Below are positions 19,321 to 24,693 of a DNA stretch of 64,000 nt, in pieces. This DNA is from Candidatus Latescibacterota bacterium. GTDB taxonomy: Bacteria > Latescibacterota > UBA2968 > UBA8231. Both the position numbers and the translations under genes were made by a program. Position 1 is the stretch's first letter. Each line of letters begins with the position of its first letter. The notes beneath the pieces were generated by a model that saw only the letters and a program-made list of their open reading frames with translations, did no database searches and was not told the origin of the DNA. Where the stretch lies: NCBI GenBank assembly GCA_965204725.1, contig OZ242005.1, positions 128,001 through 192,000 on the forward strand. Direction: 5' to 3'.

Positions 19321-20700
19321 ATGGACCCCATAGCAGAGTTAGCCGAATTCGACCGCGAGACCGTCGCCCAAGCCAAAGCCGTTGAACAGCGCATCCAAGC
19401 CGAGGGCTTGGCGGCCGGGCACACCATCCGCGACGTGCGCGTCTTCCGGGTGCTGATGCCTTGGGTTGGGACCAAGCGCTGGGACGGCTCGGCCGAGCGT
19501 TTTACTTTCGCCGAGTTCGAGACCGATAAAGGCTTCGTCGGTATTGCCGAGGGCGTCACCGCGGACGCCGCAACATTAAAGGGCAAAGTCCTCGGCAAAA
19601 ATCCTTTTGACCCCCAAATCCGCGCCGATATGGGGCTGGCCTACTGGGATCTAATCGGCAAAATCGCCAACCGACCGTTGGGCCACTATTTGCACGAACT
19701 CTTCGCGCTGGAGACCCCCTTGGCCGAGCGCGTCCCCATGTCGGCCTATACTTGGTATCGCTTCCCCGACCTCAACGGCGAAAACGCCGTCACCTTTGAG
19801 AGTTATCCTGCCTATGTGCAGGAGATTATCCACGCCCACGGCTTCCACAACATCAAGCTCTCAATGTGCGATTTTGAGCCGCATCGCTACGTGGAATTGG
19901 TCCGCAACGTCCGGGCGGCCGTGGGACCGGACGTAGATATTCGCGTCGATCCACACGCCTCTTGGGGCGAGGCGCAGGCGCTGCGCTTTATGAGCGAGGT
20001 CGAGGACTGTCATCTGGAGTGGATTGAGGAGCCGGTGGGCGGGCGATTCGCTCACATCTTCTGCGCCGGCCATCGCCTGCGGCTGTTGAGCACCATACCG
20101 ATCTCGTCGCACGCTTGGCTACCGCCGCTGGTATCGCAGCCCAGCACCAAGGGCCGCTACGGCGATGGTGCTCTAGACGCGGCCCTCGATCTGGACGCGC
20201 TGCGCCGCTGGCAGCCAGCCGACATTTCCGCGCCCGACGCTTACGCCGGGCCGCTGGCACTCAAGCGCTACTACGACGCGGCGCGCTTTATGGGCATGGG
20301 CATCGGCATGCACAGCGCTTATGAGCTGGGACCGGCCACGGCGATCCGCCTGCACATCGCGGCTTTCGCCTTTCCCTACGAGATGCCCTATCACATCGTC
20401 TGGGGACGGGACCGCGCCTTTCCGCCCTTCTCGGCGTACGCGCTCGACTCGCATTACAACCAGTGGGCCGACGACGTGATCTGCGGCGGCAAGTTGACCT
20501 ATGATCAGGGGTTCCTCACCGTGCCCAAGCAACCGGGGCTGGGCGTCGAACTCGATCCCGAGCGCCTGCGCCACTACGCCTTTAGCGAAGAAAAGGCCGC
20601 AGCCCATACCCGCCACGTCGAACAAATCCGCGCAACCCATCTCGACGCGCTCGGCTGGCGAGTGGAGCGCAACGGCTGGCGACGCTATCGGACGGGCTAG
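19321..20700 (+). CDS. Enolase superfamily (mandelate racemase/glucarate dehydratase-like) enzyme
   Basis: ETDKGFVGIAE, AYWDLIGK, IRVDPH, WIEEPV, GMHS, PKQPGLGVELD. Confidence 0.85.
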   Translation: MDPIAELAEFDRETVAQAKAVEQRIQAEGLAAGHTIRDVRVFRVLMPWVGTKRWDGSAERFTFAEFETDKGFVGIAEGVTADAATLKGKVLGKNPFDPQIRADMGLAYWDLIGKIANRPLGHYLHELFALETPLAERVPMSAYTWYRFPDLNGENAVTFESYPAYVQEIIHAHGFHNIKLSMCDFEPHRYVELVRNVRAAVGPDVDIRVDPHASWGEAQALRFMSEVEDCHLEWIEEPVGGRFAHIFCAGHRLRLLSTIPISSHAWLPPLVSQPSTKGRYGDGALDAALDLDALRRWQPADISAPDAYAGPLALKRYYDAARFMGMGIGMHSAYELGPATAIRLHIAAFAFPYEMPYHIVWGRDRAFPPFSAYALDSHYNQWADDVICGGKLTYDQGFLTVPKQPGLGVELDPERLRHYAFSEEKAAAHTRHVEQIRATHLDALGWRVERNGWRRYRTG

Positions 20701-20762
20701 GCTATTACCAAACCAAAAAGGTGCTGACGATTTTGGATTAGTGCCCAATAATCTGCTGCGGC

Positions 20763-21668
20763 CTACCGCCCTTCCTCATCCATGAACTTCTTTATGTCCC
20801 TGCCGTAGCGCACGAAATTCTCCCGCTTTGCGCTATGCCCCTCAGAGTCAACTTTTAGACCAGCGTATTCCTCAGAATAGAAGGGCTTGCCATCAGCCTG
20901 CCCCCCCCAACCCGGAAAGCACGATCGCAGCCAATAGACCTTCCTGTTGTCTTCCTTTAGGCGCACGATATATGCGATGGAATAATCGATACCCTCTATT
21001 TTCTCAACCGTAGTCTTCTTGGCATTTTCATCAAAAACATGCCTTTCTGCTTGCCCGTGTGCATCATCGCCTTGGGTAATGACCACGTCAGGCTTGAGAA
21101 TACCCACTTCCTCGCTGAGATAGCCTCCACAATTCTTGTACAGTTGGGCAGGCTCTTGCCTTGATCCGCCCACGTTGGAGAAACACTTCGCCGTTCGCAC
21201 ATGAACGAAGAGTTTCTCTATTATCTTTAAACTATCGGAATCCTCTACTGGGTCCAAGCAGCGGTAAAAGGGATCGAGAAGGCTCCTAATGGTCGTTGTC
21301 GTCCCTCGCCAGTGCGAGTACGGGCGCAGCGAGAAAGGCTTGCTCTCCACTTGCTCTGGCTGCTTTAGCACTGGCTGCGGAGTGGACAGAGAGACCACCA
21401 CGATACGCGGGATGCGGTGGCCTTTGTACTTCTTTTTTATGTAGTATTGGCTGACTTTAACTCCCTGCGTCCGAGGGGAAAAGAGAAATCCATCTGAAGG
21501 TTTATAGGCTTTCTCACAGACCTCCCGACAGCAATCCTTCTTAGGACAACAGAAAGAGTCAAACATCTTTTCGTAATCGTAGTTGCCCTCCCTGTCTATC
21601 ACTCCTTTCACAGAAGCAATACCAACTTCCTCGTAATACTTTTTGAGTTTGTTCTCCATCTCATTCAT
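20763..21668 (-). CDS. Hypothetical protein with uracil-DNA-glycosylase-like fold
   Basis: TAKC...NCGGYLSEEVGILKPDVVITQG resembles the family 4/5 UDG core; N-terminal CCPKKDCCREVC; AT-rich; AAGGAG RBS. Confidence 0.6.
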   Translation of the reverse strand: MNEMENKLKKYYEEVGIASVKGVIDREGNYDYEKMFDSFCCPKKDCCREVCEKAYKPSDGFLFSPRTQGVKVSQYYIKKKYKGHRIPRIVVVSLSTPQPVLKQPEQVESKPFSLRPYSHWRGTTTTIRSLLDPFYRCLDPVEDSDSLKIIEKLFVHVRTAKCFSNVGGSRQEPAQLYKNCGGYLSEEVGILKPDVVITQGDDAHGQAERHVFDENAKKTTVEKIEGIDYSIAYIVRLKEDNRKVYWLRSCFPGWGGQADGKPFYSEEYAGLKVDSEGHSAKRENFVRYGRDIKKFMDEEGR

Positions 21669-21765
21669 GATTGGCTCCTTTTGACGTTTAATGGTTAAGA
21701 GCTTGTACTACTCGAAATCCCCCAAGGCATCACAAGTATTCTCTCGTCATTTGTATGTTGCGTAT

Positions 21766-21941
21766 TCCTTTCAGCTAGGCCACTCTGAAAGGGCCGCGTG
21801 CGGGGCGCGTCGTCCGTCATTGGGTGCGCCGGCACGTCCGTGTCGGCGGCACCGTGCGGGAGTAAGACACCCCTCACGCTGAGTTGTCGCTCCGAACCGA
21901 TACAAGGGCACAAGGCCCGTATTACAAGTGGGGAGGACAGC
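21766..21941 (+). ncRNA. Predicted IS110 bridge RNA
   Basis: 5' hairpin CCTTTCAG/CTGAAAGG; target loop with TCCGTCATT (21813-21821) and GCGGGAGT (21856-21863); donor loop with ACCGATAC (21896-21903) and TACAAGT (21923-21929); each loop closed by inner and outer stems. Confidence 0.85.
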
Positions 21942-21974
21942 ACCAGTATCCATTATAACCAGGAGGCGATTCGC

Positions 21975-22929
21975 ATGAAAGTTATGGCCGGTATAGACGT
22001 AGGAAAGAGGAGCTTGGACGTGTCGGTAGCGGCTGGTCCGGCGCGTCGATTTGACAACACGCCTGCGGGGCGTACGGCCTTGGTGGAGTGGTTGGAACGT
22101 CAGGGGGCGACCGAGGTAGTGTGTGAACCGACAGGGGGCTATGAGCGGCCTCTGGTGCGTCGGGTGCAGGCCACGGGATGGCCGATCCACCTAGTGCATC
22201 CCAATCGCGTGCGCCACTTTGCCCAGGCGGCGGGCAGCCCCGCCAAGACCGACGCGCTGGACGCACAGAGGCTGGCGCGGTATGGGATGGCCTTCGAGTT
22301 GCAGCGTCCGCTGGCCAAGGAAGCCGACCGGGAGGTGGTACAGGACCTGCTGCGGCGGCGCAAGCAGTTAGTCAACCAGCGGGTGCAAGAGCGCCACCGG
22401 CTAGACCAAGGGCAGACCGAAGGGGCGCGCATCTCTATCGAGCGGCACCTTCAATGGCTCGACGAAGAGATTAGCCAGTTGGACGAAGCCTACCAGCAGG
22501 CATTGGAAACACAGCGTCTCGCTGGCCGAAGCCGCCGCCCTCTACCGCAGTGTGCCGGGCGTGGGTGCGTTGACCGCGGCGACGCTAGTGGGGTATCTGC
22601 CGGAGTTAGGGCACTACAGCGGCAAGGAGGTGACCTCGTTGGTCGGGCTGGCTCCGTGGGCTAACGACAGCGGCCGACAGCAGGGGTATCGCTCGATCCG
22701 GGGCGGACGAGGCACCGTGCGGAAGGTGTTGTATTTGGCGGCCTTGGCCGCCATCCGCTGCAACGACGACCTCAAGCGGTTCTATCAACGACTGTGTACC
22801 CGGGGCAAGACCGGCAAGGTGGCCTTGGTCGCGGTGATGCGGAAGCTGCTGCTGGTGCTCAACGCCATTGCCCAGCGAGGCTCCCCGTGGGTCCAACACC
22901 CCACCCCAGCAGGCCACAAAAAGGCTTGA
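21975..22929 (+). pseudogene. IS110 DEDD recombinase, split by a +1 frameshift near 22509
   Basis: GIDVG, CEPTG, KTDALDA (DEDD) in the first frame; VPGVG, GLAPWANDSG, IRGGR, ALVAVMRKLL in the second; deleting one A in GAAAC (22506-22510) restores ALEHSVSLAEAAALYRSVPG. Confidence 0.88.
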
Positions 22930-23037
22930 CCCGCAACACAGATACTCCCGCGAAAGCGGGAATCCAGTCAATGTTTGTAAGAGCGGCCGCCTTTGGAAGA
23001 CATCACTTATTGAATCCTCATATCCGCTTGATCTTCA

Positions 23038-24240
23038 TTATCCTTTGAGAATATGAGCAGGAGTACCTTTGTCGGGCATATTCTTATGCAGATAATAGGT
23101 ACCGTGAGTCTTCAAATAGTCCTGAAATGTCCCATCCTTAGCCTTGAGCTTTCTCCAGTTCTTTGTTAGGTCGAATTTGGCACGTTTAATACCATACCGA
23201 GCAAGGACGACCTCACCTGATCCTTTACCGGGAAAGTACAGTACAAAAATCACTTCATTTATTTTAGTAAATTCCTTGCGAAGATCCCTCGGAAATAAAT
23301 AGAAGCTCCTTTTCTCATTGAATAAATTTAGAATGAGACTATGCGACGCCTTCATCGTACGGACCGGGTGTGTAAGTGTTATTTTTTCATCTCCAAATAT
23401 GTCGATGTTGTAGGAATCACTACCTGCTCGGAGAGACACCGTCAGCCGACCATCAGTGAAGTCAATGTTCTTTATAAGCTTAACCCCGTCTAGTATCTTT
23501 TTCCCGTCTATAATCCTAACAGGTTCAAGTCCTGCTCGAAATATCTCTCCCTTTTCACTCGGACGAAATTTCCACAGAACAGCGAGTTCTACTAGTCGCT
23601 CAAAACTACCGCGCTTCGTAAATAAAGCACCTGAGTCTTCAAATTCAGATTCAGCTTCCCGAAATATGACAACCTGACTAAGTCGTGCAGCCTGTTGAAA
23701 TTGGATCTTGGCCTGTTCTTCCTCTGGATGAACCAAAGAATCCATAAAAACAGAATCGAAGTAGTAAACCTTATACCGACGGTAAAGGTTCACTCCTGCA
23801 GAGTCCGATAGTGATTTTGCCAGCTCATAGTCTCGTGCGTTAAGAGCAGCCTCAGCCTCACTTACTAGTCTTCTACCCTCTTCAAGGGCAGCCTTGAGAT
23901 CATCTAGGTAAGTTGGGTCCTTCGTTCGGCGGTATATCTCCTCGGCTTTTAGGGCCTCCCATCTATTGTTGGGCTCATCATCTTCCTTGTCATCAGGGAG
24001 GCTATCAACCAGTGCTTCTTTTTGTTTCTCGCCTTCCCGCGCCGTCTGTTGTTCTGGCGTCTCTGGCTCCGGAGAAAGGGCTACCGCAAGTCCGTAGGAC
24101 ACGTAGGACGGGATCAAATAGAGAGCCGCACGTTTTCTTGTTGGTATCTTGAGAAGAGGTATTGGTCGGATGAGTCCAACTAAGCATATGAGGAAACTAA
24201 TCGCTGCTATAATACGAATTGTGTCGGCTAGTTGTTCCAC
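23038..24240 (-). CDS. Hypothetical membrane-anchored protein (two N-terminal TM helices)
   Basis: 400-aa AT-rich ORF with GGAAGG RBS and GTG start; hydrophobic N-terminus LICLVGLIRP...TRKRAAL. Confidence 0.7.
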   Translation of the reverse strand: MEQLADTIRIIAAISFLICLVGLIRPIPLLKIPTRKRAALYLIPSYVSYGLAVALSPEPETPEQQTAREGEKQKEALVDSLPDDKEDDEPNNRWEALKAEEIYRRTKDPTYLDDLKAALEEGRRLVSEAEAALNARDYELAKSLSDSAGVNLYRRYKVYYFDSVFMDSLVHPEEEQAKIQFQQAARLSQVVIFREAESEFEDSGALFTKRGSFERLVELAVLWKFRPSEKGEIFRAGLEPVRIIDGKKILDGVKLIKNIDFTDGRLTVSLRAGSDSYNIDIFGDEKITLTHPVRTMKASHSLILNLFNEKRSFYLFPRDLRKEFTKINEVIFVLYFPGKGSGEVVLARYGIKRAKFDLTKNWRKLKAKDGTFQDYLKTHGTYYLHKNMPDKGTPAHILKG

Positions 24241-24283
24241 AAGACACCTTCCCTTCTGTGTGGTTTAGTATCAACCCCGGCCC

Positions 24284-24693
24284 TCTGGGGGCCGGGCAGT
24301 TGCTCACGATCACGCAGATTAGTGCGGGAAGGTTCCTGCCTATTCGCCAGAATCAGGGAGCTACCCCGATTCTTTATTCAAGCTATTTTATTCAGCAGGC
24401 CACCCGACAGGCGGGATTCTGCGTTATCGTGAGCGAGGATAAAAATAAATGATTTTTAGCTGAGGGCAAGGAATTTGTTGGGTCTGGAAATTTACATAAT
24501 ATGTCGATATTGGCGGCTCAGAAGAGTCTTTGATGCCTAAATCGAAAGGCCCCTAACCATTTGTTTCAAAAAATTTATTCCTGCGACGCGAGCTGTCGCA
24601 CCCCTTAGATAAATTATCCTTCCTGCTTCTGGGACCGGGCAGTTGCTCACGATCACGCAGATTAGCGGGAAGGTCCTACCTATTCGCCAAAAT
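24284..24693. repeat. Imperfect ~70-bp direct repeat pair (24284-24353 and 24628-24693)
   Basis: Identical 31-bp core CCGGGCAGTTGCTCACGATCACGCAGATTAG, followed in both by GCGGGAAGGT..CCTATTCGCCA.AAT. Confidence 0.85.

Follow-up and report, generated by a model that had tools for sequence, protein, structure and literature searches.

The IS110 group of insertion sequences (IS) includes IS621 of Escherichia coli, whose bridge RNA of ~177 nt carries, according to PMC11208160, left guides in the sense of the top strand and right guides in antisense, in each case with the core included. The same source describes this kind of structure for 103 IS110 left ends, predicts bridge RNAs in 85.7% of the IS110-group elements and places the IS621 promoter across the junction of right end and left end (RE-LE). 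In PMC11208158 it is reported that two "handshake" bases after each right guide pair with positions 6-7 of the other DNA once the strands have been exchanged, and that D11, E60, D102, D105 and S241 are essential in IS621. Here we describe an element in a window of 64,000 nt from a Candidatus Latescibacterota bacterium (assembly GCA_965204725.1, contig OZ242005.1, positions 128,001 to 192,000 of the forward strand; all coordinates below are those of the window unless a contig is named), which is very probably an IS110-group IS with an IS621-type bridge RNA in its left end, acting by an IS621-like mechanism. The element spans 21752-22946 (1195 bp, ends TGTATG...ACAGATA-CT) and lies within a host repetitive extragenic palindromic (REP) sequence. 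A preliminary description of the locus had stated that IS621 also inserts into REPs, a statement that agrees with the title of Choi et al. 2003, cited in PMC11208160.

The likeness to IS621 (PDB 8wt6) extends over the protein, the RNA and the target. Both have the same two protein domains with the DEDD and Ser-Gly positions conserved, a bridge RNA of ~177 nt in the left end with a 5' stem-loop and two internal-loop hairpins, a 9-nt left target guide (LTG), an 8-nt left donor guide (LDG), handshake dinucleotides, a donor core CT, a split RE-LE promoter (here a candidate, read from sequence) and a REP target. The element differs from IS621 in being distant in sequence (proteins of similar rank among the loci that we have compared are 30-45% identical) and in belonging to another phylum, its relatives here being Latescibacterota metagenome-assembled genomes (MAGs). 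Moreover, the right target guide (RTG) has 7 nt here and 4 nt in wild-type IS621, the right donor guide (RDG) pairs contiguously over 6 nt here and discontiguously in IS621, the natural target core is TT and not CT, and the right end has only 17 nt. The best-scoring solved relative in the protein comparison was the transposase of ISCro4 (PDB 9t56; E 6.9e-37 over residues 5-305). ISPpu9 and ISPpu10 of Pseudomonas putida, which we liken to the element by their description, belong to the IS110 family and use REPs or a conserved intergenic stem-loop sequence as insertion sites (PMC12288879, 10.64898/2026.03.19.712850), and here the insertion point is also at the foot of a REP hairpin. For CazIS110 of Caloranaerobacter azorensis, 10.1101/2025.10.25.684509 reports mainly top-strand insertion by experiment; this model predicts the junction cores seen here (target TT on the left, donor CT on the right), which are a genome pattern only.

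The element's ends and both halves of its target were placed as follows (G000 is the window's own genome, G145 another genome of the same genus, and X5 a sequencing run of another sample):

21752..22946, + strand: IS110-group insertion sequence, 1195 bp, TGTATG...ACAGATA-CT (empty site L060; X5 contig; ends common to the same-genome copies)
21745..21751, + strand: left half of the REP target interrupted by the IS, CGTCA followed by target core TT (orthologous empty site in G145; CGTCATTCCCGC found 95 times in the genome)
22938..22946, + strand: left donor ACAGATA plus donor core CT, the right end of the IS (ACAGATACTCCCGC is present at each of the genus's 21 right junctions)
22947..22969, + strand: right half of the split REP, CCCGCGAAAGCGGGAATCCAGT (a 24-nt stretch including this half matches 15 other places in the genome exactly; REP census)

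We have taken 21752-22946 as the inserted DNA because the G145 empty site and the X5 contig join the flanks. The orthologous site in G145 reads ...CTCGTCATTCCCGCAAAAGCGGGAATCCAG..., with CTCGTCATT running directly into CCCGC...GGGAATCCAGTCAA; this genome carries the orthologous left gene followed by ...TATTGTCTCGTCATTCCCGCAAAAGCGGGAATCCAGTCAACGTTTGTAA, in which the two flanks known from the window meet with no element between them. The X5 contig, of 129 nt, joins 21750 to 22946 and skips 1195 bases. Its support is weaker than that of the G145 site, the right side being only 22 nt long and consisting of REP sequence. The boundaries of the element are fixed by these empty sites independently of the RNA, and the range given at first, 21745-22967, proved too wide, as it takes in REP sequence that is common to all copies. 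Comparison of empty and occupied sites placed the insertion point at CGTCA-TT^CCCGC, with no duplication beyond the 2-nt core. The left end has 223 nt and bears the RNA, and the right end extends 17 nt past the stop codon, which corresponds to the long-left/short-right arrangement used as a criterion in PMC11208160. The element forms a block of 60-69% G+C (~21750-22950) inside a stretch of 40-50% (20700-24600), in a genome that otherwise has ~60%.

The target is a genuine host REP, as had been claimed from the outset. The census of G000 gave 110 TCCCGC-N3-6-GCGGGA cores, most of them with the asymmetric arms CGTCAT and ATCCAG, and CGTCATTCCCGC was present in the 95 copies listed above; the 23-24 nt that follow the element had 15 further exact matches. 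All six occurrences of the element or of its fragments in G000 start directly after CGTCATT of a REP.

The 223-nt left end contains a predicted RNA gene with three structural parts:

21766..21942, + strand: bridge RNA gene, 177 nt as modelled, ends predicted (covariance model R1 on 10 relatives; the window scores 212.3 bits)
21767..21792, + strand: 5' stem-loop (helix 1; 3 of 9 pairs with compensatory changes)
21796..21879, + strand: target-binding loop module with outer stem, LTG, inner stem-loop 21823-21853 and RTG (helices 2-4; 5 pairs with compensatory changes)
21883..21941, + strand: donor-binding loop module with outer stem, LDG, inner stem-loop 21906-21918 and RDG (helices 5-6; 97-100% paired, mostly invariant)

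In the 5' hairpin, CCTTTCAG (21767-21774) pairs with CTGAAAGG (21785-21792). The outer stem of loop 1 is formed by GCGTG (21796-21800) with CACGC (21875-21879) and by GGGG (21802-21805) with CCCC (21870-21873), and the loop exposes TCCGTCATT (21813-21821) and GCGGGAGT (21856-21863). Loop 2 is closed by GTTGTC/CTCC (21883-21893) with GGAG/GACAGC (21932-21941), has an inner stem of GGGC (21906-21909) with GCCC (21915-21918) and exposes ACCGATAC (21896-21903) and TACAAGT (21923-21929). The minimum free energy fold of 21745-21975 gave the three hairpins (-94.7 kcal/mol, z -2.25), with 4 of 200 shuffles being as stable; a single-sequence fold, taken alone, would be weak evidence for the structure. 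We have relied on an alignment of 10 left ends, four from G000 and six from four same-genus genomes. A hand-drawn structure without guide-guide pairs had 93.6% of its cells paired over 46 pairs, and nine of these pairs showed compensatory changes, a number reached by one of 500 shuffles. When the 3' partner was slid by 1-3 columns as a control, pairing fell to 43-55%. The 5' hairpin and the two internal-loop hairpins of the preliminary description were recovered, with every feature it had listed, at the coordinates it had given.

We have then read the guides by the rules of IS621, that is, an LTG of 9 nt in top-strand sense including the core, an RTG in antisense including the core, an LDG of 8 nt and an RDG in antisense:

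21813..21821, + strand: LTG, UCCGUCAUU, equal to the REP left arm TCCGTCA (7 nt, top strand) plus core TT; TCCGTCATTCCCGC found 37 times in the genome
21856..21862, + strand: RTG, GCGGGAG, antisense of CT+CCCGC; the right junction reads GATA-CT-CCCGC
21863..21864, + strand: handshake UA after the RTG, antisense of donor TA
21896..21903, + strand: LDG, ACCGAUAC; the right end ACAGATAC (ACAGATA+C) is matched at 7 of 8 positions
21923..21928, + strand: RDG, UACAAG, antisense of CT+TGTA
21929..21930, + strand: handshake UG after the RDG, antisense of target CA

Each of the four guides has the loop, the side and the sense expected of it. When the 177-nt RNA was shuffled 20,000 times, the single matches recurred in 103, 137, 670 and 70 of the shuffles, at least two of the four in 16, and all four in none. 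Both handshake dinucleotides, which the preliminary description did not include, fit the non-cognate partner by sequence; position 7 is A in both DNAs, so that only position 6 discriminates. The claim that loop 1 matches the flanks held, with the correction that the left side, with CTCGTCATT in the flank against TCCGTCATT in the loop, is matched at only 7 of 9 positions at the window site; all nine LTG bases followed by CCCGC were found at 37 REP sites in the genome. Loop 2 does match the joined ends with one mismatch in the left guide, as had been noted, and the RDG is complementary to CT+TGTA. The fold, the loop matches and the strand rule together support the assignment to the IS621 bridge-RNA architecture.

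If the loops guide insertion, they should follow the flanks in relatives, and the absence of such covariation among homologues had been named as what would speak against the proposal. When 168 genomes of the phylum were searched with the protein, 21 of them gave matches at E <=1e-20, and one homologue locus from a Zoogloea MAG was added from a species collection. Out of 25 loci, L038, L052 and L054 were left out for having no recognisable right end, and dropping near-duplicates (L002, L024, L025, L031 and the sister copies of L001) reduced the remaining 22 to 17, with proteins 30-45% identical. Since model R1 was unable to align distant homologues, their guides and flanks were compared by script, with the ends placed by conserved terminal motifs only and the flanks of each element matched to its own left end and to those of the other 16. 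The RTG (7 nt) matched its own flank at a mean of 6.59 positions and the flanks of others at 5.30, a value as high being reached in 0 of 20,000 permutations; the match was 7/7 in 11 of the 17, ten of them at left-end offsets of 88-109 and L037 with its best match at offset 8. For the LTG (9 nt) the values were 7.06 and 6.28 (1 of 20,000 permutations), and for the LDG (8 nt) 7.53 and 6.41 (0 of 20,000), the latter being overstated since kin share donors. Covariation of loops and flanks was thus seen. The G118 elements L054 and L111 have an LTG with GUGGAU and GUGGUU instead of GUCAUU, and their flanks, GTGGAT and GTGGATT, are the other REP arm. The same class also holds other IS110-group families, L048/L057 (G085), L043/L058 (G092) and L046 (G082), which reach at least 13 matches per genome. 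The loops of these families match their own non-REP flanks, e.g., AGGUAAG with CT+TACCT and AGAAAAG with CT+TTTCT.

The recombinase is encoded downstream of the RNA, in two overlapping + strand frames that hold its two halves:

21975..22509, + strand: N-terminal part of the recombinase, RuvC-like DEDD domain plus coiled coil (PF01548), with the ribosome-binding site AGGAGG at 21961-21966
22505..22512, + strand: frameshift site with one extra base, GGAAACAC where the intact copy B has GG-CACAC (alignment; run contigs; translations)
22510..22929, + strand: C-terminal Tnp domain, now in the +1 frame, with a Ser-Gly aligned to the IS621 catalytic serine (PF02371)

In the window copy, PF01548 matched residues 5-144 (E 2.5e-22) and PF02371 the +1 frame 22552-22929 (E 6.4e-16). 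The frameshift implied by the preliminary description was traced to one extra base near 22507, and the form without this base was seen in contigs of the runs X1, X4 and X5. A second full copy in the same genome, copy B, has an uninterrupted frame of 317 aa with the Tnp domain in one frame with the DEDD domain, so the frame repair proposed for a recombination assay is unneeded. The N-terminal part of the window copy is 96-97% identical to copy B over residues 1-177/179. Copy B scored 206.9 bits against NCBIfam NF033542, "IS110 family RNA-guided transposase" (cutoff 140), and aligned over residues 5-305 to the transposases of IS621 (8wt6, E 3e-35) and ISCro4 (9t56, E 6.9e-37). Its D8, E51, D93, D96 and S232-G233 sit in motifs aligned to IGID, IEATG, KTDTVDA and ESG of IS621. 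As judged from these alignments, the protein is an IS110-family DEDD/Tnp recombinase.

A DNA search of G000 (5.43 Mb) gave the following occurrences besides the window copy:

G000:C1:2014327-2015549: copy B, full, 97% identical, intact frame
G000:C1:4480794-4481672: copy C, with an internal deletion of 318 bp
G000:C1:5015039-5015241: copy D, a solo left end
G000:C1:3366070-3366111 (L006) and G000:C1:1854869-1854931 (L007): loci E and F, left-end fragments of ~35-40 nt

The locus of copy D (L005, 1501-1703) holds a bridge-RNA gene that is mutated, though complete, and lacks a recombinase; unrelated sequence follows, and a 395-aa open reading frame (ORF) beyond it appears TPR-like by eye. The site in the window is occupied here and empty in the same-genus relative and in the contig of another sample, every X5 contig over 22507 has the intact-frame form, and in G123, a relative genome, no fewer than 10 distinct left junctions were counted, of which many lie at contig ends; this would be expected of a recent multi-copy repeat. 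In run X5, a sponge metagenome in which the site is empty, the summed contig depth over 21720-22999 was ~200-550 on the IS and 12-44 on the flanks; these are sums and not copy numbers.

Two hexamers at the ends of the element may form a promoter when the ends are joined in a circle:

21754..21759, + strand: TATGTT, -10-like hexamer, a promoter half only together with the right-end -35
22926..22931, + strand: TTGACC, -35-like hexamer overlapping the stop codon, predicted half of the circle-junction promoter

The joined ends read TTGACC, the last 15 nt of the right end plus TG, and TATGTT, which gives a spacer of 17 nt and a candidate start just before the 5' hairpin. TTGA is kept at the same distance from the right end in distant homologues, and no sigma-70-like site was found upstream of the RNA gene in the integrated state. 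Transcription, RNA binding and recombination activity would be expected by analogy with IS621. On leaving, the element would form a circle, or a single-stranded one, that brings the right end ACAGATA-CT up against the left end TGTATG. The joined ends would assemble the promoter, from which the ~177-nt RNA and then the recombinase would be transcribed. The RNA made from the joined ends would bind the recombinase; one of its loops (LDG and RDG) would hold the donor junction, and the other would hold the REP of the host at the hairpin's foot. The DEDD/Ser recombinase would then swap strands at the 2-nt core, with insertion occurring without target duplication. In the window copy the frameshift precedes the Ser-bearing domain, so that no full recombinase can be made from it; this copy would be non-autonomous, but it keeps the bridge RNA and both ends and may be movable in trans by copy B.

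The anatomy of the element, its ends and target, the covariation and the conservation of the residues aligned to the catalytic ones are observations, and several others weigh against the reading as an RNA-guided element of the IS621 type. In the window copy, the extra base near 22507 puts the Tnp domain out of frame. The LDG has its mismatch to the right end (one position) in all four G000 copies; in the relatives L024 and L031 the LDG is ACAGAUAC and the match is perfect. The core guides disagree, with the LTG reading TT and the RTG reading CT; the REP core is TT, and IS621 prefers a matched CT. Among the 17 homologues, the right donor is near-invariant (own 5.65, cross 5.65), which makes covariation of the RDG uninformative, and for L041, L043, L046 and L056 the script placed the best left-guide match weakly or outside the expected loop. 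A degenerate copy in G118 (L038, identical to L071, on C43) has the LTG GUGGAU for the other REP arm and yet sits at a GTCATT site; this could fit insertion guided by the RTG only, since both orientations present the same REP stem, or exchange between copies. An Rfam scan of 21000-23600 (E up to 10) gave four matches, all with E >=1.7 and to unrelated eukaryotic families, none of them over the left end. Model R1, searched on 30 sources, gave 22 matches, of which 11 were full-length and all of the close family; weak matches were obtained for the donor loop of L036 (E 0.004) and for L056 and L040 (~E 0.25). Among the public runs listed for the sequence none is on record as RNA. No RE-LE circle junction was found among the joints in the contigs of four runs, which says little, as contigs drop rare forms.

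Three other explanations have been considered. In loci E and F and in three G145 loci, TGTATGTTGC...GGCCA-CT-CCCGC is present and the remainder of the IS is missing, and one might suppose from this that the ~35 nt at 21752-21786 are part of a longer host repeat and that the true left end lies after the CT at 21785-21786. We find this hardly credible: the 35 nt are missing from the empty orthologous site and from the X5 contig, the RDG is complementary to CT+TGTA and not to CT+GAAAGG, TGTATGTTGC occurs only 8 times in the genome, five of them with the IS or its scars, against 95 REP copies, and the -10 hexamer of the junction promoter falls inside these 35 nt. The corresponding left boundary at 21787, contradicted by the empty sites, was rejected. 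It is also very improbable that the protein chooses the site by reading the REP hairpin, with the upstream region being a mere structured 5' leader and the loop-flank matches arising from the short inverted repeats that the IS ends and the target themselves form. Such an explanation would be compatible with the partly palindromic donor junction (ATAC-TT-GTAT), with the pairing of the two guide segments of each loop to one another by RNAalifold and with the target stem-loop being an added specificity determinant for ISPpu10, as reported in 10.64898/2026.03.19.712850. On the other hand, the right and left target guides of the 17 homologues change with unrelated non-REP flanks, the LTG switches with the REP arm used, and experiments with IS621 show that the RNA sets specificity (PMC11208160).

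Alternatively, the element could be a genuine IS110 element whose family is extinct in this genome, with the copies being relics and the guide-flank matches a record of past activity. Just one of the six occurrences has an intact frame, the others being frameshifted, shortened by the 318-bp deletion, reduced to a solo left end or left as two scars, and both the LDG mismatch shared by the four copies and the lack of a run on record as RNA among those listed would agree with extinction. Against it, the full 317-aa frame of copy B keeps all five residues aligned to the catalytic ones of IS621, the window copy and copy B are 97% identical, the site filled here is empty in the same-genus genome and in the contig of another sample, all X5 contigs over 22507 have the intact frame, and the many left junctions of G123, often at contig ends, fit a recent multi-copy repeat. 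We consider extinction unlikely, and an element acting by an IS621-like mechanism is the reading that we have retained.

The cores of target and donor deserve separate treatment. The core is TT in the target and CT in the donor; GTCATTCCCGC occurs 124 times in the genome and GTCACTCCCGC 4 times. A CT core shared by target and donor, which is a preference of IS621 and not a rule that defines the family, is absent here. According to PMC11208160, non-CT cores work less well in IS621 and improve with a 7-nt RTG; the RTG has 7 nt here, and its G can wobble-pair with the T of the REP core. Left junctions had TT at 29 of 30 distinct sites in six genomes, the single CT being L106 in G123, and right junctions had CT at 21 of 21 in the genus. 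Genome and 16-nt flank served to tell the left junctions apart; orthologous sites may be among them, and the contig ends of G123 may hide duplicates. TT on the left and CT on the right is the picture expected from top-strand-only transfer with replication completing the insertion (copy-and-paste), for which 10.1101/2025.10.25.684509 and 10.64898/2026.08.31.748434 argue. An even mix of cores would be expected from double-strand exchange, because this leaves a heteroduplex core that resolves either way. This junction picture could also result if mismatch repair were biased or if the other class were lost preferentially.

Scars of the element recur at specific sites as well. At four loci (one in G000 and L126-L128 in G145), bases 1-33 of the left end, ending in GGCCA-CT, are followed by REP CCCGC; these loci differ in their flanks and left-end variants, and locus E is a variant with an extra CT. 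In L118 (G145) a deletion runs from the exact TT of the LTG-coding DNA to the right half of the REP, and L110 (G118) is a mini-element in which ~26 nt of the left end are joined to ACAGATACT. Two G.U wobbles would let GCCACT pair with the LTG GUCAUU, and for the LTG-coding DNA a match to the LTG follows by definition. From this we infer that the scars, at five to seven loci, arose by deletion from an LTG-like half-site within the element to the right junction. This is similar to the half-match recombination reported for IS621 (10.64898/2026.08.31.748434) and to the one-sided boundary matches in a survey of natural IS110 loci (10.64898/2026.08.14.744561). We tentatively view the family as a natural heterologous-core experiment, with top-strand-only transfer and with scars that would be natural records of half-site recombination; this is a reasonable possibility that we do not hold as the probable one.

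The IS is flanked by two ORFs on the - strand, 20763-21668 (301 aa) and 23038-24240 (400 aa), both in the island of 40-50% G+C, and Pfam, PADLOC and NCBIfam gave no match for either. Relatives of the left ORF were found in 5 of 30 same-genus genomes, and its start codon has the IS ~80 bp upstream. A REP variant whose CCCGC...GCGGG hairpin has a second hairpin of ~30 nt (AAGAACGTCACCCCGTGCCCCGACACGGGG) within its loop recurs in several genomes of the genus; it is found in the right flank of copy C (G000:C1:4480794 region), at L006, in the right flank of L024 and at L110, L123 and L124. The ~60 nt upstream of several insertion sites form a repeated unit (...GTCCTAAATGACTYGAAAGCATG...TCGGCACGGTCTTTTTT...), as in L006, L007, the left flank of L026/L052, L117, L120 and L122, and in G145 a left-end-like block (TGTATGTTGCCGATTCCTTTTAGGTCGGCAC) is fused to this unit.

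As an annotation the finding is ordinary, IS110-group elements, bridge RNAs and the preference for REPs being established. This is a new element of the established IS110 bridge-RNA kind and no new type of system, because NCBIfam already names the family "IS110 family RNA-guided transposase". The initial proposal of a new and potentially reprogrammable orthologue stands as regards a new family member; its novelty was overstated, given the share of IS110-group elements with predicted bridge RNAs (PMC11208160), and its reprogrammability stays conjectural. Among the papers searched none named both Latescibacter and IS110, and the supplementary orthologue tables of PMC11208160 may list the element or TT-core targets. 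Its value is that of an example that can be read with unusual ease, in a phylum that has received little study (Latescibacterota MAGs, with the sequence also occurring in sponge metagenomes): its guides, handshakes, predicted junction promoter, empty site and intact recombinase copy can all be read and make it ready for a bench test, with a compact recombinase of 317 aa and a natural 7-nt RTG. The TT/CT cores and the scars would provide genome-level evidence on cut versus copy and on the use of half-matched sites, two questions that are currently argued from in vitro work.

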